From: Candidatus Poribacteria bacterium
Lineage (GTDB): Bacteria; Poribacteria; WGA-4E; PCPOR2b
Direction of reading: 5' to 3'
NCBI GenBank assembly: GCA_965215015.1
Contig: OZ244042.1
Span: 2,144,001 to 2,208,000, forward strand
DNA: 64,000 nucleotides
Shown here: piece after piece, positions 3,519-57,389 of the stretch
How positions within the stretch are numbered: the first letter of the stretch is position 1
Layout: each line of letters opens with the position of its first letter
Made by a program: the position numbers and the translations under genes
The notes under the pieces: model-generated
What the model saw: the letters and a program-made list of their open reading frames with translations, nothing else
Told to the model about the DNA's origin: nothing
Databases searched by the model: none

Positions 3519-3567
3519 GGTTTTTCCTTTCGCTTGGTCATTTTTATGGCCCCTGATGAACCTTACA

Positions 3568-8039: not shown

Positions 8040-8237
8040 TAGGACTTACGTAGTCGAGTTTGTAGCAGTGTAATTCAACCCACGTCTTTAAGACAGTAGA
8101 CACGCTCCGCGTGCCTGCTACTGTTCAGATGAACTGGAGTTGCCCGATTCATCGGGCGTCGTGACTCATATAGATACCAACACTGTCGCACAGCAGTGTC
8201 AGGTGTTGGCTTTGAACGTTCAACTGCGTAGGGCCTA
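8040..8237 (-). mobile_element. MITE, TAGGA(C/G)TTACGCA family
   Basis: TIRs TAGGACTTACGTAG / CTGCGTAGGGCCTA; internal homology to the copies at 11246, 12028 and 57410; no clear TSD. Confidence 0.75.
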
Positions 8238-8365
8238 ACAATAAGGTAACCTTTGAAGCAATCGTAGAGCCTGCCCTCGATGAAATCGGGGTTAGCAAAC
8301 CTACGCCACGATCGGATTGCGATTAGTTGTCGAGTGTGGAAACTCGACACTACAAGAGCAGTCCG

Positions 8366-9538: not shown

Positions 9539-9712
9539 CTAAACTCTCTCCCTTCTATTTTCATTGGCTGGCGTCATGTAATCCCGGACGCTAACTCAGC
9601 CATTTCTAGTTGTGGGCTTCTTCTGTGTATCTCTTCGACCACATAATTACTCGGTAGTGCCGGAGTAAATCAAACACTTGGCTTGAACAAGATGGTAAGG
9701 TAATGACCGGAG

Positions 9713-10921
9713 CTATGCGCTTATCTGCGTCTCGTTCACCGCATACACCCTCTGGAATATGTCTTCGTCAACTTCCAACCCAAGACCCAGCGCGTTGGCA
9801 ACAGCGTACGAACCGTTCTCAAATGTAAAGTCGTCGGATTTGTATACGTTTGGTGCGCAGCGTTCATCTTCGATGGTAATGAACGATTCGGAAGCCGCTC
9901 CCCAGATCAGCGAGGCGCGAGTACCGAATACGCCGTTGTGGAAGCAGTGCGGCTGCGAGCTGACACCATAGCTGTCTAACTGTTCCTCGATTTCGTTCCA
10001 ACGTGAAAAACCATGCCTGACGATGTCCGGTTGGTAACCATCCATCAAACCGTCTTCCATCATGTCCACGTACACATCGCTGATTGGATCGGGGTCGACT
10101 TCACCGCACACCAACAACGCCTCCGAACCAACCTTCTCTTGGATGTTTCTGATCGCCCGATAGTCGTCGACGTTTGGAGGGACCATCTCCTCAAGCCAGA
10201 ACACGTCCGCAGGCTTTGTTTCTCGAATGAACATCTCCAGCAGGTCTAGGCGGTTCCTGTACCCGAAGTTACCGTCCGTCAATATCTTCGCGTCCGGCCC
10301 AATGGCTTCCCGCACGGCATAGATAACCTCGATATCGCGCCGAGCTCCCGCCTCTGGGTTCATCCAGCGACCGCACCGGCCGGTCTTGATTTTGAACTGC
10401 CTTCACCCAGCGTCAAACCCCTCTCTGGCTTGCTCAGCGACCAGTACTGCACCTTTTTCGGGGAAGTTCAGGTCGCTGAAGTAAAGGGTCGTGTCATAGG
10501 CATCTACGCGGTCACGCTTCTTGCCTCCAAGCAGCTCTAGGCAAGAGACACCCAGGGCCCTGCCAACCAAATCGTAGACGAGGATACTCATCCAGCCTTG
10601 GCCCCGGAACGCCCGTTTCGCCTCCTTTGTTGGGCCCGTGACACGTCCATTAGATACATGCAGGAACTCATCTAATCGCCTACCAAGAAGGACCTCTTTG
10701 AGCAGATTCATCACATCTGCCACAGACCCCTGTCCCCCGATTGCTCCGAGGTGCCCCTTGTTGATTGCTAGGCCCTCAACTCCACCATCCGTGCGAGCAC
10801 GGACAAGCCACTCGATTCCTATTGACCCGTGGCCCCAGTTGTAAGCATTCCTAGCAATTTCATGGGGGTAACGGGCAGGAATCGGGGTAACACTGATTTC
10901 GGTAATACGTTGCGATGTCAT
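9713..10921 (-). pseudogene. Enolase-superfamily gene with an in-frame TGA at 10403-10405
   Basis: ORFs 10403..10921 and 9713..10363 are in the same frame; reading through gives GFDAG*RQFKIKTGR (KxK motif), then TDGN, WLEE, CGE. Confidence 0.8.
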
Positions 10922-10967
10922 CTCTAATATACCTTACCTTTCATGACAAACCGACTGCTAAATAAGT

Positions 10968-11208
10968 GAGGAGGTGCTCGTAAAGTAGTAGGCCCGTTCC
11001 GTGTGTCGTAAACCCCACAACCGTTATGGCACATGGCTTGGCTAACACACAACTGCCATTAAAATTCTAACCATAACTTGAAGAACAAAGCACTGCCAAC
11101 CCCGGGGGCATCTTGCCTCATCTACCGCCTGAGCTCCCTATCTGTATCCGTGCAATCTGCTGCATCAGTTTAATCCGTGTCTCAGACAATAATTATGAGC
11201 ATCCCTCA
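10968..11208. mobile_element. MITE-like element with GAGG(G/A)GTGCTC(A/G)TAA ends
   Basis: Left GAGGAGGTGCTCGTAA, right TTATGAGCATCCCTCA; the same end motif occurs at ~21826, ~23159 and ~33410; 10967-11025 matches the reverse complement of 23117-23176. Confidence 0.55.
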
Positions 11209-11245
11209 TCTATATTTGACTCAGTTCTTTGTGTTCAGTATAATA

Positions 11246-11760
11246 TAGGGCTTACGCAGTTGAACGTTCAAAGGAAACACCAGAAAAGGGCGCGCAATGT
11301 TTATGGTCGGTTGAGCCATAATTATAGCGCAAGAGTCATGGTATCCCCGGTGACTCATCAAATACCAAGTGTATCACTCGACAGGGTTTGGTGAATTGAG
11401 CCGGGGGCTGTTGCACGACAGTGTTGGTATCTATACGACTCACGCCGCCCGATGAATCGGCAACTTCAGTTTATTATCCGCCAGTAGTAGGCCCGCGGCG
11501 CGTGCTATCCCCCCCGTTTCTTGCCCCTCTGCTGGTGTGGGACCTAAGGGAGTAGCCCCGCCTCTCCCCACACTTCTTTTCCCCTCCGCTTGCGGGTGGG
11601 TTAGGGGGGGAGCCCTACCCCTGCTGGCGTGGGGACTAAGGGGGTGATACCCCAGCCGGTATTTAGCAGGAGGAAGGGGGGACAGCATACGCCGTATGCC
11701 GACTCCCTTAAAGACGCAAGTTGAATGGCGTTACGACAAAACTCAAGGGCGTAACTCCTA
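11246..11760 (+). mobile_element. MITE, TAGGA(C/G)TTACGCA family, 6-bp TSD ATAATA
   Basis: TAGGGCTTACGCAG...GGCGTAACTCCTA flanked on both sides by ATAATA. Confidence 0.85.
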
Positions 11761-39723: not shown

Positions 39724-41796
39724 TTGATGAAGGAATATCAGACGGAACAGATTCGGAATATCGGCATTATTGGGCATTCGGGAACAGGCAAGACTTCACT
39801 CATCGAAGCGATACTCTATAATGGGGGCGCAATCGAGCGAATGGGACAAGTTGATAATGGGAGTTCAGTTTCAGATTATGCTCCAGATGAGATTGAACGC
39901 AAAATGACCATTAACTGTTCTGTGTGTGTCGCTGAGTGGAAAGGGCACAAGTTTAACATTATTGATACGCCCGGTGCCGAGGATTTCTATGGAGATCTCG
40001 AGAGCGTACTGCGGGTAGTAGATGCCGTTATTGTAGTGATTGATGCAACAACCGGTGTTGAAGGGGGGACGGAGAAAGTATGGGAAGCGGCTGATAGATA
40101 TGGACTCCCACGGATAATCTTTATCAACAAAATGGATAAAGAGAATGCCAGTTTTGAAAATGCGCTCGCGAGCGTTGATGAGATTCTTGAAGCCCAAACA
40201 ACTGCGACACAAGTGCCAATTGGTAAAGAAACTGACTTTAAAGGCGTCATCGATCTCATCCAGATGGGAGCGTTCACAGAACCGCAGGATAATAGACCTT
40301 CAGCAAAATCAGATGTTCCTTCCGAACTTGAAGCGCAGGTGGAAGAGATGCGGGAGCAGCTTGTTGAGGTTGCAGCAGAAAGCGACGATGAGTTGATTGA
40401 AAAGTTCTTTGAAGGTGAACTCACCGACGAGGAAATTGGTACTGGACTTCGTACGGGATTATGTGCCAATCAGTTCGTACCCGTACTCTGTGGTGATGCC
40501 CTGCGAAATATTGGCGTTCAACCCCTGATGGACATAGTCACCAACTGCTGCCCATCTCCGGTTGATGCCAGACCGATTACAGCAATTGACGGCGAAACAA
40601 CCTATGAGGCCTCCCCGGACTCGCCATTGGCGGCGTTGGTGTTTAAGACGTTGGCAGATCCGTTCGCTGGACGACTGAGCTTCTTCCGGGTTTATTCTGG
40701 CGTCTTAAATAGCGATTCTCAGGTTTACAACGCGACGAAAGGTGAGAATGAACGAATCGGCAAGCTCGCATTCATGAATGGGAAAACCGCTACTAACGTG
40801 CTCCAAGTATCCGCAGGCGATATCGGAGTTGTTTCTAAACTGACGCTTGCACAAACAGACGACACATTTTGCGACGTAGGAAGTTCGTTCCAACTTCCCG
40901 GCTGCGAATTCCCTAAGCCTGTTATCTCGTTCGCCATTAAGCCTGCACGAGAAGGGGATGATGAGAAACTGAGTTCGACCCTCTCCCGGATGATGGAAGA
41001 AGACCCATCATTCCAGATCGAACGGAATAGCACAACGAAACAGTTGCTGGTCTCCGGGCTTGGCGAGATACATCTCACCGTCATACGCAATCGAATGCGC
41101 GACAAGTTTGGCATCGAAACTGAAGTCGAAATACCGAAGGTCGCCTACCAGGAAACGATTCGTGGTAGGGCGAACGGTATTCAAGCGAGGTATAAACGTC
41201 AGTCTGGCGGGCGCGGGCAATTCGGGGAGGTCTGGATAAACCTGTCCCCACTCCAACGAGGTAGCGGATTTGAATTTGTCAACAAGATTGTGGGGGGCTC
41301 GATTCCGCGTAATTATATCCCCGCGGTTGAGAAAGGCATCCGTGAGTCGATGGCTCAAGGTCTGATTGCCGGGTATCCCTTCGTTGACGCTCAAGTGGAG
41401 CTCTACGACGGTAAGCATCACCCTGTTGATTCCTCTGATATGGCTTTTCAGATTGCTGGTTCTTTTGCGTTTCGAGACGCAGCAAACCAATCCAATCCAG
41501 TGCTGCTTGAGCCAATCATGAACGTCACAATCTCTGTTCCAGAACAGTTCATGGGGGATATTATCGGCGACCTCAATAGCAAACGGGGCCGAATCATGGG
41601 GGTTGAACAGGCGGGCAAACGGCAGGTCATTCAAGCGACCGTCCCGTTGGCAGAAATGTTCCGGTATTCGATAGACCTTAAATCAATTACGAGTGCGCGG
41701 GGCAGCTTCACGATGGAGTTTTCAAATTACGAGGAGATGCCGGATGAACTAGCCCAAAAGGTAATTGCTGAAGCAAAATCAGAGGCGGAAGAGTAA
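39724..41796 (+). CDS. fusA: Elongation factor G-like protein (EF-G2 type)
   Basis: GHSGTGKTS, IDTPG, NKMD, RQSGGRGQFG, HPVDSSDMAF, LLEPIM; stand-alone location and non-canonical G1/G2 indicate a paralog. Confidence 0.9.
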   Translation: MMKEYQTEQIRNIGIIGHSGTGKTSLIEAILYNGGAIERMGQVDNGSSVSDYAPDEIERKMTINCSVCVAEWKGHKFNIIDTPGAEDFYGDLESVLRVVDAVIVVIDATTGVEGGTEKVWEAADRYGLPRIIFINKMDKENASFENALASVDEILEAQTTATQVPIGKETDFKGVIDLIQMGAFTEPQDNRPSAKSDVPSELEAQVEEMREQLVEVAAESDDELIEKFFEGELTDEEIGTGLRTGLCANQFVPVLCGDALRNIGVQPLMDIVTNCCPSPVDARPITAIDGETTYEASPDSPLAALVFKTLADPFAGRLSFFRVYSGVLNSDSQVYNATKGENERIGKLAFMNGKTATNVLQVSAGDIGVVSKLTLAQTDDTFCDVGSSFQLPGCEFPKPVISFAIKPAREGDDEKLSSTLSRMMEEDPSFQIERNSTTKQLLVSGLGEIHLTVIRNRMRDKFGIETEVEIPKVAYQETIRGRANGIQARYKRQSGGRGQFGEVWINLSPLQRGSGFEFVNKIVGGSIPRNYIPAVEKGIRESMAQGLIAGYPFVDAQVELYDGKHHPVDSSDMAFQIAGSFAFRDAANQSNPVLLEPIMNVTISVPEQFMGDIIGDLNSKRGRIMGVEQAGKRQVIQATVPLAEMFRYSIDLKSITSARGSFTMEFSNYEEMPDELAQKVIAEAKSEAEE

Positions 41797-41886
41797 AAGG
41801 TCGTAACTCAACTATCGCTCTACGAAGCATACCACTATTCCGCGGTCCACCTTAGAAGCAGGTAAGGAAAGTTAGAGGAAGCTTTT

Positions 41887-42594
41887 ATGGGCAGATATGC
41901 CTACTATTACAATCTTGCTAAAACTCATCTGGATCAAGGAGATTCTGGTCGTGCCCTCATAAACTTTACCTTAGCACAGCGACAGAATCCCAATCGTGTC
42001 GAGGCCTATTACGCTCGTGCTACGGTTCACCAGCTGAGAGGCAATCATGATCGCGCCAATGCAGATTTGACCACGGCACAGAACCTCACGAGAATTTCCT
42101 TTGCTGAGTTTGATTTAACGAAGGCCAACGAATTTGTAGAGAGCGATGCCGGATTAAGCCTTATAGAAAACCAGGACGCGAACCCTAGTGATATTCTTAT
42201 AAGGAAACTCGGCGAGATTGCCTTTGCTAAATTTCTATATGAGCATGATAAGGCATTCTTGAATGATGCCAATCAACTTCTAACATGGGATGATGTTTAT
42301 ACATCGGACAGACTGAATCTCCAGACTTGCGACGGCCAAACTGTTGATGTTAAGGCATCCAAATTCCAAAGCATAGTGGTTCCATATAATAATAAACCAA
42401 GGGATTATTACGTCGGAGTTGGAATTTCAACGGATAAGACAATAGGTACAGTGGAGGGTTTTATTCATAGAGATGGACTAAAGCCCTCTGAGTCTAACAT
42501 TCCCGATCCATGTCTTCAAAGAAAATTTGAATCACTTAAATGTATCGAAGACTTGCTTGAAATGATGCCTGAGGCAGAAAACGGTGCGAGCTAG
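41887..42594 (+). CDS. TPR-repeat protein fused to a PD-(D/E)xK nuclease-like domain
   Basis: N-terminal ~65 aa TPR (AYYYNLAK...AYYARATV...ANADL); C-terminal [11 protein letters not shown]...D...VDVKAS; paralog of the RpoB C-terminal extension. Confidence 0.7.
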   Translation: MGRYAYYYNLAKTHLDQGDSGRALINFTLAQRQNPNRVEAYYARATVHQLRGNHDRANADLTTAQNLTRISFAEFDLTKANEFVESDAGLSLIENQDANPSDILIRKLGEIAFAKFLYEHDKAFLNDANQLLTWDDVYTSDRLNLQTCDGQTVDVKASKFQSIVVPYNNKPRDYYVGVGISTDKTIGTVEGFIHRDGLKPSESNIPDPCLQRKFESLKCIEDLLEMMPEAENGAS

Positions 42595-42675
42595 GTCCCA
42601 CGGGAGAATAATAAACAAATGTGCCCCCTATCCCCAATACCTGCCCTTGTGATGGTGGGTATGCACCCCATTAGA
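42078..42675 (+). repeat. ~600-bp direct repeat, copy 1 (copy 2 at 52427-53033)
   Basis: Nucleotide alignment by eye, including ~80 bp past the stop codon. Confidence 0.95.
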
Positions 42676-42736
42676 AACGGATAAGATCTCTCTCGTTCTT
42701 ACCGAAAAAACTTTAGGTCTGTTCACGCATTACCTA

Positions 42737-45700
42737 TCACGTTCGGATCTCACTCCCAAACCTTGCCGAAACAACCTTTGACACGCCCGCCTGCTCCATC
42801 GTCACACCGTACATGACATCGGCAGTTTCCATCGTCCGTTTATTGTGGGTAATAATAATAAACTGTGTCTGCTGGGCGTATTTCCGAATGAGGTTGGTGA
42901 AGCGGAGCACGTTCGCTTCGTCAAGCGCAGCATCAACTTCATCTAGAACACAGAAGGGGCTCGGCTTAATCTTAAACACGGCGAAGAGCAGGGCAATGGC
43001 GACAAGGGACCGCTCACCGCCGGAGAGTTGCGTGATACTCTGTGGCCGCTTCCCCGGCGGACAGGCGATGATATCAATTCCCGATTCTAACACGTCAGAT
43101 GCTTCTGTCAAACGTAACTCCGTTTCCCCACCCCCAAAAAGTTCCTCAAAGACCTCTTGAAAGTTGGCGCGTATCTGCTCAAACGCACCGAGGAACGCTT
43201 CACGTGAGGTCTGGTTAATCTTTTGAATGGCTTGGTTGACCGATTCGAGCGACTTCTCGAGGTCTTGGCGCTGGGTGACGAGGAAATCTTCACGCTGCTT
43301 GTGCTCCTTATACTCCTCAATCGCCACAAGATTAACAGAGCCCATCCCTTCAATCTCGGCTTTCAGCGTATCAATCTGTCCCATCAACTCCAGGTCGTCA
43401 ACCGGATTATCCTCGACTTCAATCTGATCAATTGTGATTTGGTACTTATCGAGGATTCGGGCGGAGATTGCCTTCAATTGCATCTGCAACTGGGTCGTCG
43501 TGACCTCTAGGTGATGCCGTAGGCGATTATGCTTATCAAATTCCCTTCTGGCTTTGCGCATCAGCTTCTGCGCTTCTGCAATCTGTTTGATTAAACCTGT
43601 ATGCTCCTCCTCTAGCTGTCTCACATTTTCCGCCGCCTCAAATTTTTCCTGCTCTATCTGGAGAAATTTGCGTTGCGCTGCGTCAATTTGTGAAGAGAGC
43701 TCTTGGCGGGTTTGGTCATCTGAATCGATAACCCCCTGATGCTCGGCGATACTGTCGTGAATCTGTGCCTGATTTTTTTGAAGATTTAGGAGCTCAGAGC
43801 TCAAGCTCTGCAATTTTTCCCGTTTCCCTGCTAAAGCAATTTCAAGTTCTTGGCAGGAACCGATGACTTCATCCCGTTTATTCTTTTCGCTCTGAATCTG
43901 CTCCGACAACCGCTTGATGCGTCGTGCTAATGTGCGGCGCGCCTTGGCTGCGTCCTCCAATTCAGACTGCAGGGCGTCCTGATCGGCTTTTGCTTTTTCC
44001 GTTTCCTGATGCAGACCTACCTCTTCCTTTTCTACATCATTCAATTGTTCTTCAAGTTGGCTAATTTGCCGTTGTCCCTGTTCCAAAACTTTTGACAAAC
44101 TCGCATGCTCAATTCGGTGCGTTTGCTCCTGTGTAATGAGGGTTTGCCGGGTCTGTTGGAGTTCCACCAACTTGCCAGCAAGTTTTTTGCTTCTGCCATC
44201 CTTTGCATTGAGCTGGCTTGTCAGTTGGTTAATGCGTTCCTGTAGATCTTCTAGCTCCCTTGAGCGGCTCAGGAGTCCACTAGTTGAACCAGTGTTATGC
44301 CCACCCGTAACTGCGCCAGAAGTATTGATTAATTCTCCCTCCAGTGTGACGAGGCGCGCACGGTGACGGAAACGCCGTGTCAGGTTTATTGCTGTGTCAA
44401 GGTCTTCGACTACAACTGTATTTCCTAGCAGTTGCTGAACTGCAACCTCATATTTTGAGTCGTAGTCTAGGAGTTCAGCTGCCAGACCGATTACACCAAC
44501 CTCCTCTAGCAGACCATCGCCGTGGAACGAGCGAGTCCGCAGAATATCCAAGGGCAAGAAGGTCACTCGACCGGCTTTCGTCCGTTTGAGAAACTCAATA
44601 CCGGACTGAGCGTCTTCAGCGGTTTCTGTAACGATGTTTTGAATAGCACTCCCCAATGCTACCTCGATGGCTAACTCGTAGTCTGATTCGGTTCGGATGA
44701 GCTCGGCGATGACGCCACAAATCCCGCCAAAGCGTTCTGGCTCTATTTCGCGGACTTTAAGAATCGCGCGTACACCTGTGTAGTAACCTTCATGGACGGC
44801 TTGCAAATCCCGTAATGACTTAAACCGTGAAACGCTGGTACCGAGTGAATCCTGCATCCCACGCAGTTCGGATTCTAGCTTGCGGAGCTCCGCTTGGTGG
44901 CGTTGGATTTTTTCTTCAGCTTTCTGCCGGGCCATCTCAAGGCGAAGCAGGTCGGCGTTAAGCTGCTGTTCACGTTGGTGTGCCTTTGTATAATCCGATT
45001 TTTCTGCTTCTAGTTCAGTGTCTAAAGCGTTTGAGCGTTCCGTAATTCGATCCAGATTAGCAGCTGAATACTCCAGTTTGTTGTTAAGGGACGCAAGCTG
45101 CGTTTCCAGTTGTGAGACTTGATGGGTCGTTTCAAGCAATTTTTCCTGTGTTGTTTCTACGGAACCTTCGGCTTCCGTCACCCGCCTATTGAGTTCGGTC
45201 AAAACTCGCCGCCGCGCGGTCAGTCGGCTTTCCTCTAACTGAAGTGAAACGTCAACCTGTCTGTGTTCTTGCTCGCGGTCCTCCTTTTGCTCTTTAAGTT
45301 CTGATGACTGTCTCTCCAATGATTCGATTGCCTGAAGTGCCCGTTGGCGCTGCTGCTGAATATTTAGCTGACGTTCCTTGTAAAGTGCAATTTGCCGTTC
45401 CGTTTGTTCAATCTCACTCGCAAATTGGCTCACAACCCCTTGCCCATTACGAATTAAGTTATCTAACTCGGAGCGGCGGGCTGTCGCATCCTCAATCTGC
45501 TGCTCTGTGGAATCGATCTGCTCATTGGCTGCTGTCACCGCAAGCATCAATTCATCTAAGCTGAGTTGGGTTTGAGTCAATTCCTTGGCAAACCGCCCAT
45601 GCTCCCGACGGTTGAGGTCCAGTTCAAGGTTTTTCAGTTGACCGTGGAGTTGTTGATAACGTTCGGCTTGTTCGGCTTGCCGCCTGAGCGATTCAGTTTC

Positions 45701-46300
45701 ACGCTGCAATTCGTGGATAACATCATTAATCCGCACAAGGTTCCGCTCAGTTTCTTCTAGCTTTTTAAGGGCCGCTTTTTTGCGGTGCTTATATTTGGTG
45801 ATGCCCGCAACTTCGTCGAACAGGAAGCGGCGCTCTTCGGGACGGGTATTGAGAATGAGATCAATCTTACTCTGCTCCATGACAGAGTACGCATCGACGC
45901 CGATCCCTGTGTCCATAAAGAGCTCTGTAATATCTCGTAGCAAACACGGGGTATCGTTGATGAAATATGTGCTTTCACCGCTACGTGTCAGTTGACGGCA
46001 AACTGCAATCTCCGGGGATTCAAACGCAAGTTGTCCCTCAATGTTGGTGAAATGAAGGGAAGCCTGTGCCCGTTGTGCTGGTTTAAAGTTCGATCCACCG
46101 TTAAAAAGGAGATCTTGCATATTGGCACAACGCAGGGCGCGGGGGCTCTGTTGGCCCAAGACCCAACGAATTGCGTCTGACACATTGCTCTTACCACAGC
46201 CATTTGGTCCCACAATAGTTGTAACTCCAGGCTCTAGTATTAACTCCACATCTTCGGCGAAGCTCTTGAAACCACTGATTTTAATTTTATTGATATGCAA
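42737..46300 (-). CDS. smc: Chromosome segregation protein SMC
   Basis: GFKSFA, GPNGCGKSN, hinge GRVTFLPL, LSGGE, LDEVDAALD. Confidence 0.97.
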   Translation of the reverse strand: MHINKIKISGFKSFAEDVELILEPGVTTIVGPNGCGKSNVSDAIRWVLGQQSPRALRCANMQDLLFNGGSNFKPAQRAQASLHFTNIEGQLAFESPEIAVCRQLTRSGESTYFINDTPCLLRDITELFMDTGIGVDAYSVMEQSKIDLILNTRPEERRFLFDEVAGITKYKHRKKAALKKLEETERNLVRINDVIHELQRETESLRRQAEQAERYQQLHGQLKNLELDLNRREHGRFAKELTQTQLSLDELMLAVTAANEQIDSTEQQIEDATARRSELDNLIRNGQGVVSQFASEIEQTERQIALYKERQLNIQQQRQRALQAIESLERQSSELKEQKEDREQEHRQVDVSLQLEESRLTARRRVLTELNRRVTEAEGSVETTQEKLLETTHQVSQLETQLASLNNKLEYSAANLDRITERSNALDTELEAEKSDYTKAHQREQQLNADLLRLEMARQKAEEKIQRHQAELRKLESELRGMQDSLGTSVSRFKSLRDLQAVHEGYYTGVRAILKVREIEPERFGGICGVIAELIRTESDYELAIEVALGSAIQNIVTETAEDAQSGIEFLKRTKAGRVTFLPLDILRTRSFHGDGLLEEVGVIGLAAELLDYDSKYEVAVQQLLGNTVVVEDLDTAINLTRRFRHRARLVTLEGELINTSGAVTGGHNTGSTSGLLSRSRELEDLQERINQLTSQLNAKDGRSKKLAGKLVELQQTRQTLITQEQTHRIEHASLSKVLEQGQRQISQLEEQLNDVEKEEVGLHQETEKAKADQDALQSELEDAAKARRTLARRIKRLSEQIQSEKNKRDEVIGSCQELEIALAGKREKLQSLSSELLNLQKNQAQIHDSIAEHQGVIDSDDQTRQELSSQIDAAQRKFLQIEQEKFEAAENVRQLEEEHTGLIKQIAEAQKLMRKARREFDKHNRLRHHLEVTTTQLQMQLKAISARILDKYQITIDQIEVEDNPVDDLELMGQIDTLKAEIEGMGSVNLVAIEEYKEHKQREDFLVTQRQDLEKSLESVNQAIQKINQTSREAFLGAFEQIRANFQEVFEELFGGGETELRLTEASDVLESGIDIIACPPGKRPQSITQLSGGERSLVAIALLFAVFKIKPSPFCVLDEVDAALDEANVLRFTNLIRKYAQQTQFIIITHNKRTMETADVMYGVTMEQAGVSKVVSARFGSEIRT

Positions 46301-46432: not shown

Positions 46433-47569
46433 TTAATCCTTGGAAAAGCTCTGATTCAAGGCATCTTTAATCTCTGTAATGACTTCTGTATCCGCTTCCA
46501 TGTCTAAACGTGCTTGTAACGCTTTTCTTGCAGCCTTACCCCCAATTTGCCCTAATGCCCATGCAGCATGGCCGCGGACCAAGGGCTCGCGATCGTTCAA
46601 CGCTTTTTTGAGGGCAGGCACCGCAGCTCGATTTTTCCAATTGCCAAGCGCAACTGCAACATTTCGGAGAAAACCCCGTCGCTTCGCTCGCTTGACTGGA
46701 CTGTTTCTAAAACGTCTGCTAAACTGTTCCTGCGTCATGTTAATCAATGAAAGCAGCGTAGGCGTGAAATTTCCCTGGCGTGGATAAAAGGCACGCTCTT
46801 TTGTCGGCACAGCTTTGCTGTTCCAAGGGCAAACTTCCTGACAGATGTCGCAACCGAAGATTAGGTTGTCCATCTGCGGACGGAGCCCTCGGGGGATGCT
46901 CCCCTTCAATTCAATGGTAAGGTAGGAAATACATAGCCGGGAATCGAGGATGTTCGGTGCTAGGATTGCGTCTGTAGGACATGCCTCAATACAGCGGGTG
47001 CACGTGCCGCAACTGCCACGAAGCAGCGGTGTGTCTGTGTCCAACTTGATACTGACCAAGATACCCGCGAGAAAAAACCAAGAACCGGCTCGCCAGTTAA
47101 TCACATTTGTATTTTTAGCAATCCATCCGATGCCCGCGCGTTCCGCGTACTCACGTTCAAGGACCGGGGCGGTATCTACATAAACTCTGGTTTTGACCTT
47201 TTCTTCAGCGGTTCTTTGGATAAATATCGCCAACCGATCTAATTTCGATCGGATAAGACTGTGGTAATCCGTTCCCCACGCATACCGAGAAATCTGTCCG
47301 CGCGATGGATCCGCCACAAGTGACTTAGGGGGGGCGAGCGTGTAGTAATTAATCGCCAACGCGATAATTGATTGGGCTTCGGGGAGGATTTGGCGTGGAT
47401 CCCGCTTCAGCGGTAGATGCCTTTCTAGGTAACCCATCTCTCCGGCATAACCGTCTTTCAACCACTGTTCGTAGCGATCAATCGTCTGGCTTGGTTCAAC
47501 TGGGATAATACCAGCCAATTCAAATCCAAGTTTTTGTGCCTGAACCTTTATCTGTTCTGTCAGATTCAT
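46433..47569 (-). CDS. queG: Epoxyqueuosine reductase
   Basis: ISRYAWGTDYH, VDTAPVLERE, CGTCTRCIEACPT, CISYLTIE, GCDICQEVCPWN, C-terminal HEAT repeats. Confidence 0.95.
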   Translation of the reverse strand: MNLTEQIKVQAQKLGFELAGIIPVEPSQTIDRYEQWLKDGYAGEMGYLERHLPLKRDPRQILPEAQSIIALAINYYTLAPPKSLVADPSRGQISRYAWGTDYHSLIRSKLDRLAIFIQRTAEEKVKTRVYVDTAPVLEREYAERAGIGWIAKNTNVINWRAGSWFFLAGILVSIKLDTDTPLLRGSCGTCTRCIEACPTDAILAPNILDSRLCISYLTIELKGSIPRGLRPQMDNLIFGCDICQEVCPWNSKAVPTKERAFYPRQGNFTPTLLSLINMTQEQFSRRFRNSPVKRAKRRGFLRNVAVALGNWKNRAAVPALKKALNDREPLVRGHAAWALGQIGGKAARKALQARLDMEADTEVITEIKDALNQSFSKD

Positions 47570-47831: not shown

Positions 47832-50800
47832 ATGCCCCATCCCGTCAAATATGGCAAGCGTGAAAGATTATCTTTTGCAAAAATTCCGGAGATTATGAAT
47901 CTCCCCGATCTCATCGAGGTTCAAAAATCCTCCTACGACGAATTTCTTCAACAAAATATCCCCCCAGAAAAGCGTAAAGATAAAGGCTTACAAGCCGTTT
48001 TCAACGAAATCTTTCCAATCCCCGATTTCAGCGAAACTTCCGAACTTCAGTTCGTTAGTTATTCACTCGGTGCCCCTAAGTACGACATTAACGAATGCCA
48101 ATCCCGTGGGTTCAATTATGCCCTGCCGGTGAAGGTTCGTGTCCAATTGGTTCTCAGAGAAAAAGATCAGGACACCGGTGAAAATCAGCTGATTGATATC
48201 AAGGAAAATGAAGTCTATATGGGCGAAATCCCCTTGATGACGGAAAACGGTACTTTCATCATCAACGGCTCTGAACGGGTGATTGTCAGCCAGCTACAAC
48301 GATCTCCCGGTGCAACGTTTGGGGAAGATACCCACACCAGTGGACAGACACTCAACACTGCGAAGATTATTCCGTATCGAGGGGCGTGGATTGAATTTGA
48401 GTGCGACATCAAAGATCTGATTTATGTCCGGCTCGATCGACGAAAAAAAATGCTCGTAACTGTTCTGCTCCGGGCACTGGGTTGGGAAACCGATGAAACC
48501 ATCCTCCATCTGTATGCCAAGACAGAGTGTGTTCAGCTCGATGATTCCCTGATTGGTCGGGTGACGGCTGCTCCTGTTGAATATTCTGTCCCTGAAGATA
48601 TCTTGCTTGAAGCAAATACAAACACAGAGCGTGTCAATCTAGCTGACGCTCCAATTGGTCGGTTGATAGCTACTCCTGTCGAATACAAGCACCCTGATAC
48701 TGGAAAAGAGGTCTTGCTTGAAGCAAATACGAAATTGACAGCAGAGCAGATTTCGGATTTGCTTCAAGCAGATATCAGCGAAGTTGTAGTTGAAGCAAAT
48801 ACAAACACAGAGCGTGTCAATCTAGCTGACGCTCCAATTGGTCGGTTGATAGCTACTCCTGTCGAATACAAACATCCTGATACTGGAAAAGAGGTCTTGC
48901 TTGAAGCAAATACGAAATTGACAGCAGAGCAGATTTCGGATTTGCTTCAAGCAGATATCAGCGAAGTTGAAGTTATTCCTGTCGAATACAAATTACTCGA
49001 AGCAAATGTGGAGTTGACAGAAGAGGCAATAGACGATTTGCTTGAGGCAGGTATCAGCGAAGTTGAAGTTTTAGACGCAGATGATGCAGAAGAAATCCGT
49101 TTTCTGCGAAATACGCTCAATCGTGATCTCCAATCGGAGTATAAACTGCCGTTAATTTTTAAAGTGCCATCAGACCTCCAAAGTGATTTGACAGATAATG
49201 CACCGGTGTCAGAGACATGGCGTCAACAGTTTAAAGACAGTGGCACCTCTCTGTCCTCTACCGCGATCATGCAGGTAAAAACAGCAGATCGCCGTTGGCG
49301 TGTATTAAACAAGAATAATAGAGAGAACTTTACCATTGAGAAAATAGGGGATACCCTCAACGTCTATCGGGGAAGTATCCAAGACTTGGCGGTGGTTGAA
49401 ATCTTTCGTAAGCTGCAACCGGGCGACCCGCCTACAATCGAGAGCGCGCACAACCGATTTGAAAAGCTATTTTTCGATTCAGTGCGCTACGATCTCGCAA
49501 AGGTAGGGCGGTATAAGCTTAATGAAAAGCTTGGCAACCTTTCCCTGTATCGGAACGAGGACGAAGTAGTAGATGAAACGATTCGTGTCCTGCGTGCGGC
49601 GGACATCGCCGCGGTTCTCCAATACCTGATACAGGTGCAGAATGGAAACGGAGAGATGGACGATATCGATCACCTCGGTAATCGTCGAGTTCGCGCTGTC
49701 GGAGAACTGTTGCAGAACCAGGTGCGGATGGGGATGCTGCGAGTTACCCGGGCGACGCGAGAGCGGTTGACAGTTCAAGACTTGGAAAGTGTAACCCCTG
49801 CCGACTTGATTAATCCTAAACCCTTGACCGCTGCGATCAAAGATTTCTTCGGATCGAGTCAACTTTCCCAATTCATGCAGCAAGCCAATCCGCTAGACGA
49901 GTTAACCCATAAACGCCGCTTGAGTGCATTGGGCCCCGGCGGACTGCATCGGGAACGTGCAACCTTTGAGGTACGGGATGTCCATCGTACTCACTACGGA
50001 CGAGTCTGCCCGATTGAGACACCTGAAGGCCCTTCGGTGGGGTTAATTGTTTCCTTAAGTACCTACGCGCGGGTCAATGCCTACGGCTTTATGGAAACAC
50101 CTTATCGCAAGGTGTCTGAGGGCAAAGCAATCAATCGGATCGATTATTTGTCCGCCGATAAAGAAGATACGTTCACCATTGCACAGGCACATGCTGTCCT
50201 CGATGAGGACGGAACGATGGAAGGCGACCTGATGGTTACACGGCAAAAGGACGATTTTCCCCGGAAGTTAGCACCAGAAATCGATTACATTGATGTCTCC
50301 CCGAAACAAATCGTTGGTGTTTCTGCCGCGCTCATTCCCTTCCTTGAGCATAACGATGCGAACCGTGCATTGATGGGGAGTAACATGCAGAGACAAGCTG
50401 TACCGCTCATCCGGCCAGAAGCTCCGTTGATTGGGACTGGTATGGAACATAAAGCTGCTCGCGATTCTGGGGCAGTTGTACTGGCAAAGCGGGATGGCAT
50501 TGCAGAAAGCGTCTCTGCATCTGAAATCATTATCCGCACGGATGATGCCTTCCGGATTGCTCATGGAGAGCAGTCGTTCAGCGAAATGGGCTACGATGTT
50601 TATCGCTTGACCACCTTCAAGCGATCCAACAGTGGGACCAGCCTCCACCAACGCCCATGTATAAATGTCGGAGAACAGATAAAAGCCGGTCAAGTGATTG
50701 CCGATGGCACCTCAACAGAGAATGGAGAGCTGGCCCTCGGCAGCAATATCCTAATCGCATTCATGTCTTGGGAAGGATATAATTATGAGGATGCTATCCT

Positions 50801-52952
50801 CCTCAACGAGTCACTCATCGCTGACGATACTTACACCTCTATTCACATCGAAGAGTTTGAGGTAGAAGCGCGTGATACGAAGATGGGATCCGAAGAGATT
50901 ACTCGAGATATTCCAAACGTTTCTGAGGAAGCTTTGGCGCAGTTAGATGAGGAGGGGATTATTCGCATCGGTTCAATTGTCCGTCCGGGAAGCATTCTTG
51001 TGGGCAAGGTGACCCCGAAGGGAGAGAGTGACCTCGGCCCCGAAGAAAAACTGCTGCGTGCAATCTTTGGTGAGAAAGTCGGCGAAGTGCGCGACGCTTC
51101 CAAGTATGTCAAGCCCGGCACCGAGGGGGTTGTTGTTGATGTCAAGGTCTTCTCTCGGAAAGAGCGGGACGGGGACCGTCAAACGGAATTACGGGAGATC
51201 GCGAAAAAGAAAGAGGTGGAGAAGGAATGGGAGGCGAAATGTGGATTAATTAACCAACGCAAGGACGACGAGATCCGCAACATACTGCTCGGTCAAAAAC
51301 TCGCTAGCAGTGTTTCTAACGACACAGAACTCATTGCTAGGCGGGGAAAGATTGTAACAGAAGAGTTGCTGGAAACGGGCGTTCCGTTGGAACAATTTCA
51401 TGTTAGGGATGCTGAGGCAATGGAGCTCATCCAACGCATTCAACAGTTGGCGCAGGGGCGTATTGATGCCCTGACGGAAGAAAAGAAAGCACAAATTGAG
51501 AAAATCGAGAAGGGCGACGAGTTGAAGCCGGGGCTTCTCAAACTGGTGAAAGTTTATGTAGCGATCCGTCGAAAGATCTCTGTCGGCGATAAAATGTCCG
51601 GGAGACACGGCAATAAGGGAGTCGTTTCAAAGATTCTCCCACAAGAGGATATGCCCTATCTGGAAGACGGTACGCCAATCCAAATCATCATGAATCCGTT
51701 GGGGGTTCCGGGGCGCATGAATGCGGGACAGATTCTGGAAACGCATTTGGGGAGGGCGGCAAAGGAACTTGGATTATATATTACCACGCCGGTCTTTGAT
51801 GGGGCGGAGGACCCGGAAATTCGTAAGCTCTTACGAGAGGCAGGGCTGCCCGAACACGGAAAAGCGAAGTTGTATGATGGTCGAACCGGGGAACCCTTTG
51901 CCCAAGAAGTGACTGTCGGATATACTTACATTCTCAAGCTCAATCACTTGGTAGATAATAAAATCCACGCCCGCAGCACAGGACCCTATTCGTTGGTGAC
52001 TCAGCAACCGCTCGGTGGCAAGGCACAGCAAGGTGGCCAACGTCTCGGTGAAATGGAGGTGTGGGCATTGGAAGCATATGGGGCTGCCTACACCCTTCAA
52101 GAATTACTCACAATTAAATCCGATGATGTCATTGGAAGGAGCAAAATCTACGAAGCGATTGTCAAAGGAGAAAATGCCCCCGCGCCCGGCACTCCAGAGT
52201 CATTTAACGTTCTCGTGAAGGAATTACAAAGCCTTTGTCTAGATGTAGACCTAGAACAGACATCTGATGCCCCAGATACTTTTGATGCCCCAGATACTTT
52301 TGATCTTACGCCTGAGAAACAGAACCTGCAGACATCTAATGCCCCAGATACTTTTGACCTTGCCCCTGAGAAACAGAACCTGCAGACATCTGATGCCCCA
52401 GATACTTTTGATCTTGCCCCTGAGAAACAGGACCCCACGAGAATTTCCTTTACTGAGATTGATTTAAAGAAGGCCAACGAATTTGCAGAGAGCGATGCCA
52501 GATCAAACCTTATAGAAAACGAGAACGCGAACCGTGAGTATATTCGTATAGGGAAACTCGGTGAGATTGCCTTTGCTAAATTTCTAGATAAGCATGATAA
52601 GGCATTCTTGAATGACGCCAATCAACTTCTAACATGGGATGATGTTTATACATTGGACAGACTGAATCTCCAGACTTGCGACGGTCAAACCGTTGATGTT
52701 AAGGCATCCACATACCAAAGCATATTGGTTCCATGTAATAATGAATCCAAAGATTATTACGTCGGGGTTAAAATTTCACTGGATAGGAATAGGAAAATAG
52801 GTACAGTGAAGGGTTTTATTGATAGAGATGGACTAAAGCCATTTACTCACCCTGACATTGATAAGCCATGTCTTCAAGGAGAATTTGGATCACTTGAATG
52901 TATCGAAGCCTTGCTTGAAATGATGCCTGAGGCAGAAAACGGCGCGAACTAG
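47832..52952 (+). CDS. rpoB: DNA-directed RNA polymerase beta subunit with insertions and a C-terminal fused domain
   Basis: [67 protein letters not shown], then a ~230-aa extension. Confidence 0.97.
48607..48969 (+). repeat. 183-bp in-frame tandem duplication within rpoB
   Basis: [59 protein letters not shown] twice; the copies differ at AAGCAC/AAACAT (silent). Confidence 0.95.
52257..52430 (+). repeat. 54-bp tandem repeat (~3 units plus an 18-bp sub-duplication) encoding the RpoB linker
   Basis: [18 protein letters not shown] units starting at 52257, 52329 and 52383. Confidence 0.95.
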
Positions 52953-53033
52953 GGCCCACGAGAAAATAATAAACAAATATGCCCCCTATCCCCAATACTT
53001 GCCCTTGTGATGGTGGGTATGCACCCCATTAGA
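52427..53033 (+). repeat. ~600-bp direct repeat, copy 2 (copy 1 at 42078-42675)
   Basis: Homology covers the RpoB extension and 3' non-coding DNA up to ...CACCCCATTAGA. Confidence 0.95.
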
Positions 53034-53144
53034 TTGGGAGTCGGAACATGATGTATGAAGTGTGGAAGAGGAGAAGTCCGAAAAAATAGAAGTGCTTCTC
53101 TTCTAATCTTCTAATCTTCTAATCGTTAATAAGGGAGAATAGCC

Positions 53145-56100
53145 ATGTCAAATCAGATCCAAGAACGAACAACACAGGCGGGAAATCTGAACAATTTTGA
53201 TGCGATTTCAATCCGAATCGCTTCGCCAGAATACATTAAGGAATGGGCAAAAAATACAGCATGTCACCAGCGGACTAGTGGATGCACGACCAGTAACTGT
53301 GCATGTGGCGAAGTCCGGAAACCTGAAACAATTAACTATCGCACATTTCGGCCCGAACGAGATGGCTTGTTCTGTGAGGCGATTTTTGGGCCACAAAAGG
53401 ACTGGGAATGTGGATGCGGTAAGTACAAACGAATTAAACACAAAGGGGTAATCTGTGATCGATGCGGTGTTGAAGTGACTCAGCAGAGGGTGCGCCGTGA
53501 ACGGATGGGGTATATCGAATTGGCAGCACCGGTATCGCATATCTGGTTTTTCAAAGGATTGCCTTCCCGGATTGGATTGTTTTTAGATCTCCCATTTCGT
53601 GATATTGAGCGGGTTATCTATTTTGAGTCGTTCATCGTATTAGAAGTCAGCGATCCAGACTGTGACCTTGGGGAAAAACAGCTCCTCACAGAGCGGGAGT
53701 ACACGCAATATCGAACTAAATTTCCCGATGGCTTCCGTGCCGACATGGGTGCCGATGCGATCCAAGAACTGTTGGAGCGAATTGATTTAGATCAGGAGAT
53801 CGCAACCCTGCGCGCCGAACTTGAGGGGACCAAGAGCGAGCAAAAAAAACGGAAGCTGCGCAAGCGGTTGGAATTGGTGAGGGGCTTCAAACAGTCAGGC
53901 AATCTGCCGCACTGGATGATTCTTACCGTGATTCCGGTAATTCCACCCGACCTACGTCCGCTCGTAGCTCTCGACGGAGGACGGTTTGCCACTAGCGATT
54001 TGAATGATCTGTACCGGCGGGTGATTAATCGGAATAACCGGCTAAAACGTCTCATGGAACTCCGGGCACCAGAAGTGATTATCCGCAATGAGAAACGAAT
54101 GCTCCAAGAAGCAGTTGATGCGCTACTCGACAATGGCCGTCATGGTCGCATGGTAAAAGGCCCGGGCAATCGTGGCCTGAAATCCCTTTCCGATATGCTC
54201 AAGGGGAAACCGGGACGTTTTCGTCAAAACTTGCTCGGCAAGCGCGTGGATTATTCGGGACGGACGGTCATTGTGGTTGGACCAGAACTCCAGTTGCACC
54301 AGTGTGGCTTGCCAAAGAAGATGGCCTTGGAGTTGTTTAAGCCGTTTATCATTCATAAGCTGCAAGCAAAAGGCTATGCCCACACTATCAAACGGGCGAA
54401 AAATATGGCAGAGCAGATCTCGCCAGAGGTGTGGGAGGTGTTGGAAGAGGTCATTGACGAGCATCCCGTGCTCCTGAACCGGGCGCCAACGCTACACCGA
54501 CTTGGGATTCAAGCGTTCCAACCCGTGCTTGTCGAAGGAAAAGCAATTCGAGTCAACCCACTCGTGTGTGAAGCATTCAATGCGGATTTTGATGGAGATC
54601 AGATGGCAGTGCATGTCCCATTAAGTGTTGAGGCACAGGTTGAAGCAAAACTACTGATGATGGCAACGCGAAATCTTCTCAAGCCGGCACATGGTGGAGC
54701 CATTGCGGTGCCGAACCGAGATGTTGCAATGGGGTGCGGCTTCCTCACAAAAGCTGTTCCAGAAAAGGAATGGGAGAGAGTATGCCAAGTGTCAACCCCG
54801 CGAATCTATCGAGATCCGGAAGAGATTATTCTCGCACACGATTGCGATGCCCTTGGACTACATGATCCGGTAAAACTCTACCTCGATGGGGCTACGCAGC
54901 CAATCGAAACAACCGTGGGACGAGTCATCTTTAACCAGGTTGTTCCTAATGAGTTGTTGTTCACAGATGTCAAGACGCAACAAACGCTGCCATTTGCCAA
55001 CCAAGAGATGGGTTCGCGCGATCTCTCAAATTTAGTGTCTCGTGCTTTTGAGGAGTTGGGAAATCGCCAAACTGTGGGGTTTATAGATGACTTGAAGCGG
55101 CTGGGTTTTCATTACGCAACCCTTGCCGGACTCTCTATTGCTATGCAGGATATGATCATCCCACACCAAAAGGGGGAGTTGATAAGGGAAGCACGGAAGC
55201 AGGTCGAACAGATCGAAGAGGACTTCCAAAGAGGCGACATGGACATGAGTGAGGGTGAACGCTACAACAAAGTGATTGATGTTTGGCATCAACTGATCGA
55301 ACAAATCGAAACCGCCTTGTTTGATGGGTTGGAACAGGGACGGGAGGATGAGGTTGAAGGATTTAATCCTGTTCATATCATGGTGGACTCAGGCGCGATT
55401 TCTCGAAGCAAGCGGGATTCAATTCGCCAACTGGCAGGCTTGCGCGGATTGATGGCAAAGCCTTCCGGAGAGATTATCGAACAACCAATTGAGTCTTGCT
55501 TCCACGAAGGGTTGTCGGTGCTTGAATACTTCATCTCGACCCACGGGGCGCGGAAGGGACTTGCCGACACCGCGATTAAGACTGCTAGTAGTGGTTACCT
55601 GACGCGGAAGTTGGTTGATGTTGCACAAGACGTAATGATAACAACCGTGGACTGCGAAACGCTTGGCGGTGTTACTAAAACGACGGATGAAGAAGAGGAG
55701 AGTCCGTTCTCAGAACGGATTTTCGGGCGCACAGCAGCCGACGACATCGTCGACTTGAGCACAAATGAGGTGCTAGTGCCAAAGGACGAGTTGATTACCC
55801 AACACGCAGCAAAGAAAATTGAGGCAGTTGGTATCCCTGAAGTCCGCGTCCGATCTGTTTTGACCTGCGAAGCCCCCAAAGGCGCGTGCGCCAAATGTTA
55901 CGGCACCGATTTGACAAGCGGCCATTTGGTCGATGTCGGGGAGGCAATCGGTATTATTGCAGCACAATCAATTGGGGAGCCGGGGACCCAGTTAACTATG
56001 CGAACGTTCCACACAGGTGGCACCGTCAGTGGTGGTGGGTCCCAATCAAGGATTGAAGCTCGGCATGATGGGAAGGTTCAATATCACAATGTCAGGTTTA

Positions 56101-57389
56101 TTGAACGTCCTGTTGAAGAGGGGCAGCAGTCCGATGTGGAGACAGAAAAGATTGTCCTTTCCCGAAATGCACAGATCCAGATTATTGATGTGCATGGATA
56201 TGCAGTCGAGCGGCACGCTGCTGATGTCGGCGCACGATTATACGTCGAAGATGGGCAAAAAGTGACTAAAGGAAATTCCCAAAATGGGAAACAGGCAACA
56301 TTGTTGCTTGAGTGGGATCCATATCAAGTGCCGATTCTGACAGAACATGCCGGACGCGTCGTGTTCAAGAATATTGTTGAAGGCAAAACGATGCGTGAGG
56401 ACAAAGCCACCGGTTCAGCAGAACGGGTTATTATCGAACACAGAGGCGAGGATCAGCCGCAAATTGAGATTCAGGATGAGGCCGGGGAAGTCCTGATTAG
56501 CTATCAGATGCCAACAGGAGCCCACCTTTCAGTTACAGATGAGGAGCAGGTGGAACAGGGAGCTGTCTTAGCGCGGTTGCCGCGTGAAAAAGGGCAGAGC
56601 CGAGATATTGTAACAGGGTTGCCACGAGTCACTGAGCTCTTTGAGGCACGGCGACCGAAAGACGCCGCTGTGATCTCCGAGATTGAGGGATATGTCGAAC
56701 TAGAGGGGGCTAGCCGTGGGGTGCGCACCCTACGGGTGGTGAATGGAGACCTCCAGAAGAGCCGTCGCATTCCACAGGGCAAGCACCTAATTGTGCAGAA
56801 TAATGATAGGGTCGCTGCCGGAGAGCGGTTGACAGATGGGCCAATCAATCCGCACGATATCCTGGAAGTAAAAGGGAAGGAAGCGGTACAGAACTACCTG
56901 GTCAATGAAGTCCAAGATGTTTACAGAACACAAGGCGAGCGCATCAACGATAAGCACATTGAGGTCATTGTGCGGCAGATGCTGAGTAAGGTAAGAATTG
57001 AGAGTCCAGGTGATACAGAGTTTCTCGAAGAAGAAGAAATAGAACGGGCAAGGTTCCATCGAGCGAACCAAGTTGTTGAACATAACGGCGGGCAGCCTGC
57101 AACGGCTGACTCAATCTTACAAGGAATCACGAAGGCATCCCTATCCACGGAAAGCTTCATCTCTGCTGCTTCGTTCCAGCAAACAACCAATGTGCTAACG
57201 ACAGCTTCGGTTGCCGGTAAACAGGATCGGCTCGTTGGTCTGAAGGAAAATGTTATTATGGGACATCTTATCCCCGCAGGAACCGGGTTATCTAAGTTCC
57301 GGAAGATTCGCACTTTCCCCACAACGGAAGCACAGCCTGAGTTTACTGATTCTTTATCATCCCCGGTTGATGAACCGGCAGCGGATTGA
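53145..57389 (+). CDS. rpoC: DNA-directed RNA polymerase beta' subunit
   Basis: KPETINYRT, Zn-finger CGCG...[38 protein letters not shown]. Confidence 0.98.

Follow-up and report, generated by a model that had tools for sequence, protein, structure and literature searches.

Recent fusion of a restriction-type nuclease domain to the RNA polymerase beta subunit in a species of Poribacteria

A sponge-associated species of Candidatus Poribacteria encodes, at the 3' end of rpoB, a second copy of a nuclease-like domain that is also found 10.3 kb upstream in a small gene for a tetratricopeptide repeat (TPR) protein. Both genes lie in a 64,000-nucleotide stretch (the window; positions 2,144,001 to 2,208,000 of contig OZ244042.1, assembly GCA_965215015.1) of a genome consisting of a single 5.94-Mb contig. 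The analyses described below led us to conclude that the arrangement is a real, recent and single-lineage fusion of a restriction-type nuclease to the beta subunit of RNA polymerase, an unusual architecture in which the core of the domain is conserved. A full-text literature search returned no report of an RpoB-nuclease fusion.

Repeat pair and gene context

The genes and repeat copies in question are the following (window coordinates).

41887..42594, + strand: accessory TPR-nuclease gene, 235 aa, donor-type copy (open reading frame (ORF), Pfam, AlphaFold2 (AF2) model); two TPR repeats at residues 1-69 and a predicted PD-(D/E)xK restriction-endonuclease-like domain at residues 65-235
42064..42675, + strand: repeat copy A, running from the last TPR codons through the entire nuclease domain and its stop codon to the end of 81 nt of 3' DNA (alignment)
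42595..42675, + strand: 3' non-coding part of copy A, 81 nt
47832..52952, + strand: rpoB, 1706 aa, canonical and the only one in this genome (single strong RpoB match; Pfam Rpb2 domains 1, 2, 3, 45, 6 and 7)
52278..52439, + strand: three tandem 54-nt linker units (repeat search)
52413..53033, + strand: repeat copy B, in frame at the 3' end of rpoB (alignment)
52428..52949, + strand: nuclease-like domain on RpoB, residues 1533-1706

Copies A and B represent one segment of about 610 nt, in which the nuclease-like domain is followed by a stop codon and then by 3' non-coding DNA (81 nt). A repeat search of the window detected three collinear direct-repeat blocks, 42078-42377/52427-52726 (300 nt, 91%), 42434-42485/52789-52840 (92%) and 42494-42675/52852-53033 (182 nt, 90%), at a spacing of 10349-10358 nt. 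Pairwise alignment joins the blocks, with two in-frame gaps of 6 and 3 nt, and pushes the similarity out to about 42064/52413. Between 42064-42675 and copy B there are 72 mismatches and 15 gapped columns per 621 alignment columns, and the copies differ by about 12%; the 81 nt aligned after the stop codons contain five differences. The first-pass annotation, made by eye, had described a direct repeat 10.3 kb apart that includes about 80 bp of 3' non-coding DNA, and had inferred that a DNA cassette was copied; the alignment bears this out.

Both frames are open. Copy A makes up the 3' two-thirds of the 235-aa ORF and copy B the 3' end of the 1706-aa rpoB. The encoded domains share 127 of 174 residues, and the codon alignment contains 120 identical codons, 7 with synonymous changes only, 44 with non-synonymous changes and 3 gapped. 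The by-eye count of roughly 45 changed residues, 7 silent changes and 9 bp of indels was therefore accurate, as was the statement that the frames are intact and the putative catalytic core nearly invariant: from the GKLGE motif to the VDVK motif the copies differ at three residues, no more.

The domain with its 3' segment occurs at these two places only. No third copy was found in the 5.94-Mb genome, where the next tblastn match has an E-value of 0.27 and the next blastn matches are 18 nt or shorter; therefore, the segment is not a fragment of a common insertion sequence or miniature inverted-repeat element, an origin that the first-pass annotation had named as refuting its reading. The sole promoter-like match is on the minus strand, and copy B lacks a start codon of its own. 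No immunity-like gene follows either copy, only 81 nt of non-coding DNA and then smc or rpoC. The 3' non-coding segment was also considered as a terminator or structured RNA and rejected, with a fold z of 0.3 and no terminator on the + strand.

As previously noted, the two copies enclose smc, queG and rpoB. The identities of the following neighbours are supported by NCBIfam.

39724..41796, + strand: EF-G paralogue, upstream of the TPR-nuclease gene
42737..46300, - strand: smc, convergent with the TPR-nuclease gene
46433..47569, - strand: queG
53145..57389, + strand: rpoC, 192 nt 3' of the extended rpoB

Fold and catalytic residues of the copied domain

No Pfam, NCBIfam or PADLOC family was found for the domain, the only matches being sub-threshold ones to DUF1822 (E 0.089-0.0013). 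The AF2 model of the RpoB-borne domain, built on an alignment of 15 sequences, has a pLDDT of 85.6 and a pTM of 0.85. A structure search independent of Foldseek found seven chains in the Protein Data Bank (PDB) with Z of at least 5, every one of which is a PD-(D/E)xK nuclease: I-Ssp6803I (Z 6.3), Hjc (6.1 and 5.7), DpnI (6.0), Hje (5.7), D212 (5.6) and NhoI (5.5), with the match covering residues about 35-166. The predicted viral structures of BFVD gave 50 matches at E <= 0.001, with TM scores up to 0.73; most of these are small phage proteins without a name, and a few are called restriction endonucleases, two of them among the best ten. An Atlas look-up also leads to small viral proteins and DUF1822.

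Four residues, E46, D72, D90 and K92 (domain numbering), are invariant in all 15 aligned sequences, both window copies included. In the model, E46 is in a long helix and D90-x-K92 is in a strand, and D72 is placed in a short helix rather than a strand; the active-site geometry is that of a prediction. Both the fold and the residue order E...D...(D/E)xK are those of the PD-(D/E)xK superfamily, and metal-dependent phosphodiester cleavage would be the putative activity. As modelled, the domain is a restriction-endonuclease-like PD-(D/E)xK module with an E...D...DxK set, belonging to a family without a curated name.

Distant standalone relatives of the nuclease domain, 150-220 aa long, were detected with profile E-values of 1e-13 to 1e-23. 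In the profile search with alignment A3, 27 of the 150 matches listed, all 76-320 aa in length, hit the nuclease part. This profile retained TPR columns, and thus most of its 2242 matches in all are TPR proteins; the Poribacteria profile scan was likewise affected.

The donor gene and its variable site

The N-terminal part of the 235-aa protein consists of TPR repeats. Pfam TPR_2 and TPR_17 score 28.3 bits (cut-off 27) and 25.3 bits (cut-off 24.4), respectively, and residues 1-69 superimpose on TPR structures with Z 13-14 and a root-mean-square deviation (rmsd) of 0.6-1.7 over 66-69 residues. In the AF2 model the protein is one compact body (pLDDT 89.2, pTM 0.86) with four helices in residues 3-67. 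Among 12 metagenomic relatives, 11 have the same layout of TPR and domain; the twelfth, P0013, lacks the TPR part and has a 110-residue C-terminal extension without a family match. Most members of the clade of the two window copies possess an 18-residue insertion, which is present in about half of the TPR-nuclease alleles and missing from both window copies. These metagenomic alleles look mosaic, the first half of P0014 resembling P0004 and the second half P0012.

An initial search found the domain in two of 41 representative genomes (G000, the present genome, and G014). Among the matches listed for 176 Poribacteria genomes, beyond which there were 432 further matches, it was present in G000, G014, G111 and G092, and as a fragment in G062. 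The site of the TPR-nuclease gene, between the EF-G paralogue and smc, varies within the genus: in 14 of 19 other genomes 52-333 nt separate the flanks, in three the distance is 0.9, 3.1 and 9.7 kb, and in the remaining genomes they lie on separate contigs (one) or were unmatched (one). In the nearest genome, G003, from a sister species, what is left of the TPR ORF is its ribosome-binding region and first 27 nt, which run straight into the end of smc, indicating that the TPR-nuclease gene was once there and was then deleted. One of the longer spacers, that of G018, holds an unrelated ORF for a 238-aa membrane protein.

The TPR-nuclease gene is thus an accessory gene of the variable EF-G/smc spacer (window 41797-42736) that recurs in metagenomes. 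The 11 metagenomic proteins combining TPR and domain, the remnant in G003 and the missing 18-residue insertion show that the donor was the TPR form.

Fusion to RpoB

None of 29 other RpoB matches carries the domain, their alignments ending at residue 176-200 of a 406-residue query in which the domain starts at 233, and it is absent from all 17 same-genus RpoB genes. The fusion was found in this Poribacteria species only. All nine same-genus rpoB genes that were read in frame end in a common 22-residue acidic tail (loci L008 and L013, in the other orientation, were left out of this comparison). The common tail in the relatives and the lack of the domain in the RpoB of the 29 other genomes indicate that the fusion is the derived state.

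In rpoB, the copied segment displaced the 8 terminal codons of the native gene together with most of its 260-280-nt spacer to rpoC. The segment starts precisely at the TPR/nuclease boundary, and microhomology at the join is limited to a few bases. The RpoB core is connected to the domain by a linker of about 55 residues, acidic and proline-rich, encoded by three 54-nt units that are 83-89% alike. In each unit a piece of the native RpoB tail is joined to the nine bases with which the copied segment opens, and in units 1 and 2 these bases still have the donor version; therefore, the triplication took place after the fusion.

Contigs from three sequencing runs match the region without a difference. 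Run X1, which may be the source sample, has a contig of 9216 nt that covers 48940-53400; run X5, from a second study, has one of 477 nt over 52177-52653, with the core, the linker and 215 nt of the domain; and run X7, from a third study, has one of 195 nt over 52242-52436. Since the X5 contig, obtained in another study, bridges the rpoB-domain junction, the fusion is not an assembly artefact, and the earlier argument against a simple assembly duplicate was correct. A loose end in X7 at 53130 has the spacer type of the relatives and is read as another species in that sample. Searches of longer proteins returned no fusion (0/352 with the domain, 0/334 with RpoB 1500-1706 as the query), a weak negative in that the RpoB of the window was not returned either, probably because a tail-less RpoB represents the 90% cluster to which it belongs.

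Age of the duplication and selection on the copies

Nei-Gojobori counts over the whole domain gave 10.7 synonymous differences (Sd) at 107.7 sites and 51.3 non-synonymous differences (Nd) at 405.3 sites, corresponding to a dS of 0.106, a dN of 0.139 and an omega (dN/dS) of 1.31. The adjacent RpoB core, compared with nine relatives, showed dS values of 0.76-1.28 and omega values of 0.010-0.024. The domain dS of about 0.11 against 0.76-1.28 for the core places the duplication at roughly 7-12 times younger than those species splits.

The first-pass annotation had attributed the excess of amino-acid changes to diversifying selection, and had regarded a dN/dS at or below 1 as refuting it. The estimate does lie above 1, yet a ratio of 1 or less is neither established nor excluded: the bootstrap 95% interval of omega is 0.72-2.84, 18% of the replicates are at or below 1, and the Fisher P is 0.62. 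The differences were unevenly placed. Columns 1-40 had an Sd of 0.2 and an Nd of 16.8 (Fisher P 0.02); columns 41-99, the core, had an omega of 0.38 with a dS of 0.116, equal to the overall dS; and columns 100-174 had an omega of 1.23. The strongest 40-codon window, after permutation over all windows, had a P of 0.077. Diversifying selection is not demonstrated by these comparisons of codons.

The change was also asymmetric, by about 3:1, and fell mostly outside the core. With P0003 as the outgroup, the RpoB copy has 30 unique changes and the TPR copy has 9 (P 0.0008); the asymmetry pointed in the same direction with 13 of 13 outgroups, with P < 0.05 in 10 of them. The terminal branches of a maximum-likelihood protein tree measure 0.31 for the RpoB copy and 0.095 for the TPR copy. 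The RpoB-derived changes affect 3 of 51 columns that are invariant in all 13 other sequences, as opposed to 24 of 118 variable columns (P 0.021), and one of the 27 polarised changes falls in columns 41-99. Taken together, these patterns show purifying selection on the core of either copy. The change on the periphery of the RpoB copy probably reflects relaxed or redirected constraint.

The proposal that the TPR copy acts as a donor cassette for gene conversion was not supported, as no conversion tract was found: identical stretches shared by the copies reach at most 37 nt (P 0.47), a length consistent with differences that are spread evenly. Two possible signs of adaptation in the RpoB copy were also considered. 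A shift in charge was rejected, the net charge being -10 vs -12. Hydrophobic-to-polar replacements in its N-terminal helices account for 3 of 11 changes, too few to be taken as a sign of a lost TPR interface.

Standalone relatives and methyltransferases

The standalone relatives adjoin DNA methyltransferases in 8 of the 10 contexts with enough flanking sequence; several of these eight have one operon layout in common and are not independent. (L023, with the ORF layout of L022, and the short loci L020 and L025 were left out.) In a Poribacteria metagenome-assembled genome (L017) the relative overlaps an N6_N4 methylase gene. In Streptococcus infantis, four metagenome contigs and a Lactiplantibacillus plasmid, the relative is accompanied in each case by an Eco57I-type and a C5 methylase, and a Streptococcus prophage relative has three methylases nearby. 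The two exceptions are a same-genus genome, in which the neighbour is a WD40 protein, and a prophage-like site adjoining Sipho_Gp157. Within 4 kb of the nuclease/methylase operon of L017 there are also a Schlafen/AlbA_2 protein and a second N6_N4 methylase (8155-9318, - strand; 9640-11253, + strand), which suggests a defence island.

The host genome itself contains 43 N6_N4 and 29 Eco57I-type methyltransferase matches over the cut-off and two C5 methylases. Many of the Eco57I-type matches are in frames of 1100-1200 aa, typical of fused restriction-modification enzymes. With so large a set of methyltransferases, self DNA could be safe from a solitary restriction-type nuclease.

Origin and possible role of the fusion

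The sequence comparisons show that rpoB acquired at its 3' end a copied piece of about 610 nt that derives from the TPR-nuclease gene 10.3 kb upstream or from an allele very close to it, and that the junction was then tandemly triplicated to yield the acidic linker of about 55 residues. Since then the RpoB-borne copy has kept its frame, the E...D...DxK residues and the family-invariant positions, while changing about three times faster than the TPR copy at variable positions. The domain may have been retained as a folded and probably still catalytic nuclease module, flexibly tethered to the C-terminus of beta, and the faster change would reflect constraint that was relaxed or redirected after the loss of the TPR partner. 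As a working model, a solitary restriction-type nuclease would be brought to DNA by RNA polymerase, or would form a pair with the free TPR-nuclease in the manner of type II enzymes, and self DNA would be protected by the large methyltransferase set of the genome. As the natural beta-beta' fusions of Helicobacter and Wolbachia show, the C-terminus of beta lies beside the N-terminus of beta' and tolerates fusion.

We give this explanation as a whole, recent copying together with a kept and tethered nuclease module, a probability of about one half. Its historical part is highly probable on the sequence comparisons, namely that a piece of the donor gene was copied to the only rpoB, that the linker was triplicated, and that the copy is young with its core kept. 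The functional part is tentative. Still more speculative, and rather improbable, is the idea that transcription delivers an active nuclease on a flexible beta tether, alone or paired with the free TPR-nuclease, to unmodified invading DNA, or that we see an early, catalytic stage of a domestication like that of the Rpb5 jaw.

Several observations weigh against the explanation as a whole. One of the five AF2 models is confident (pLDDT 85.6, with 65.1-36.5 for the others); a Foldseek search against the PDB gave nothing at E <= 0.001, the best match being NaeI at 0.03; and the structural matches are middling at Z <= 6.3, where, according to the tool, values below 8 may reflect a common arrangement. 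No methyltransferase was found beside either copy or in the window (PF01555, PF00145 and PF07669 were searched). No cognate methyltransferase was found either, the best match in the same genome to the methylase of the Poribacteria relative being 31-34% identical. The partition into core and flanks (columns 1-40, 41-99 and 100-174) was chosen after the data had been seen, the 13 outgroup tests are not independent of each other, and the RpoB copy is in an unresolved polytomy of the protein tree, in which its sister placement to the TPR copy was not recovered. Seven positions that are invariant in the TPR subfamily are changed in the RpoB copy (7/76 vs 20/93 variable positions, P 0.035). An omega of 1.31 for the domain against 0.010-0.024 for the RpoB core implies that the constraint on the appended domain is weak overall. 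No RNA run is among the runs listed for the junction, and the fusion, known from one species, could be a tolerated accident.

The main alternative takes up this last point: illegitimate recombination would have put a now functionless domain on a fusion-tolerant terminus of beta, where it drifts and will eventually decay. We regard such a passenger as possible, though on balance doubtful. It would explain the whole-domain omega that is indistinguishable from 1, the threefold faster change of the RpoB copy, the restriction to a single species, and a microhomology join free of mobile-element features; the survival of the frame under drift is not very improbable either, the probability of no stop codon being 0.38-0.15 under 31-62 random substitutions. 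However, the changes avoid family-invariant columns (3/51 vs 24/118), and one change in 27 lies in the catalytic segment, although the synonymous divergence there is as high as elsewhere. Moreover, both indels are multiples of three, and the linker was lengthened after the fusion and its units have diverged by 11-17% with the frame unbroken.

A second alternative, put forward in the first-pass annotation, is diversifying selection on a swappable effector cassette, the TPR copy being a conversion donor for the RpoB tail or the two proteins forming a two-component pair. The 44 non-synonymous against 7 synonymous-only codons, the excess of Nd in the first 40 codons, and the metagenomic TPR-family members, which are 61-89% identical to each other and mosaic-looking, agree with it. 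Nevertheless, the overall omega is not significantly above 1, the N-terminal excess has a P of 0.077 when corrected for the choice of window, and there is neither a conversion tract nor an immunity-like gene. Neither the genome nor the matches listed for the 176 Poribacteria genomes contained further copies or fusion partners, so that the word swappable rests on two copies. We consider this alternative improbable.

It is still less probable that the domain is a selfish homing-type nuclease that cuts near the rpoB end in cassette-free genomes and is copied in by repair. The best match among solved structures, I-Ssp6803I (Z 6.3), is indeed a PD-(D/E)xK homing endonuclease, many of the structural relatives are small phage proteins, and the target would be a highly conserved essential gene. 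But the fusion occurs once, with 0 of 17 same-genus RpoB genes carrying it; the copied piece begins inside the donor ORF and brings no start codon or promoter of its own; and most standalone relatives are in methyltransferase operons rather than in introns, inteins or intergenic homing sites. An assembly artefact, with one copy misplaced or two strains collapsed, might be suspected in a metagenome-type single-contig assembly in which repeats are the classic source of misjoins, but is scarcely credible for copies that differ by about 12% and two indels, with the rpoB copy in frame, a linker triplication specific to the junction, and contigs from three studies matching the junction region at 100%.

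The core of bacterial RNA polymerase has rarely gained parts, and those that it has gained are as a rule old and without enzymatic activity. The addition described here is recent and datable and concerns the only beta subunit; the nuclease is apparently intact, and its donor, still present at a distance of 10 kb, allows a comparison. A functional tail would couple DNA cleavage or recognition to transcription, which is not described for bacteria in the literature searched. A passenger tail would still serve as a natural gauge of the tolerance of the beta C-terminus for foreign protein and of the evolution of a domain that has lost its partner.

Comparison with known systems

The domain shares sequence family, size (150-220 aa) and the E...D...DxK residues with small type II restriction endonucleases of restriction-modification operons. 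Those enzymes adjoin methyltransferases of the N6/N4, Eco57I and C5 types, whereas the window copies adjoin none and are fused to TPR repeats or to beta instead; neither copy has the adjacent cognate methyltransferase that defines a type II restriction-modification system. The resemblance to I-Ssp6803I (PDB 2ost; rmsd 3.6 over 107 residues at Z 6.3) and to Hjc (rmsd 3.4 over 101 residues at Z 6.1) goes with identities of 10-12% and Z values below the clear level, and there is no intron or junction-resolvase context here. A homing endonuclease would reside in an intron or intein or have its own expression signals, and the RpoB copy is an in-frame C-terminal fusion. Nor does the locus have the immunity gene and silent cassettes of polymorphic toxins with C-terminal cassettes; it has two copies and non-coding 3' DNA.

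Restriction-fold domains attached to RNA polymerases are known elsewhere. The N-terminal jaw of eukaryotic Rpb5 is such a domain, listed without a nuclease function in the accessible part of the superfamily survey by Steczkiewicz et al. (2012, PMC3424549), and the same part describes the cap-snatching endonucleases of influenza PA and of bunyavirus and arenavirus L proteins as active PD-(D/E)xK nucleases joined to RNA polymerase. The Rpb5 jaw is likewise located on a subunit of a multisubunit RNA polymerase. It is ancient and fixed in eukaryotes, whereas the present domain has intact catalytic residues, is borne by beta, and arose in a recent event that is limited to one species. The 50 structural matches listed do not include Rpb5. 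The PA endonucleases of influenza and Dhori viruses were weak structural matches (Z 2.9-3.5). Cap-snatching nucleases differ in that they are N-terminal parts of viral RNA-dependent polymerases and cleave RNA, and the relationship extends to the superfamily level. The Rpb5 jaw and the cap-snatching endonucleases are the nearest analogues in principle, not relatives.

BEAN/SBHM-type insertions in beta and beta-beta' fusions are likewise lineage-restricted additions to beta, although the catalogued insertions are internal and non-nuclease. In the accessible text of a 2024 survey of beta/beta' insertions (PMC11515920), in which terminal extensions are masked, the words nuclease, fusion and restriction do not occur. 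Besides the C-terminal domain, the present rpoB also has a large repeat-bearing N-terminal insertion, as seen in lineage-specific beta insertions. This N-terminal part (48514-49070) includes a 183-nt tandem duplication (48607-48789/48790-48972, 98% identical) and older related units. The RpoB frames of the genus range from 1379 to 1797 aa, indicating that the N-terminal insertion expands and contracts.

Outside the window, the genome contains a further RNA-polymerase-like gene, an ORF of 1039 aa (G000:C1:848737-851856, - strand; 1238-4357 of locus L050) with matches to domains of both beta type, Rpb2_6 (E 8e-40) and Rpb2_3, and beta' type, Rpb1_2 (E 2e-18). It encodes a compact single-chain, two-barrel RNA-polymerase-like protein, and similar frames of 1024-1067 aa are present in seven other genomes of the genus.

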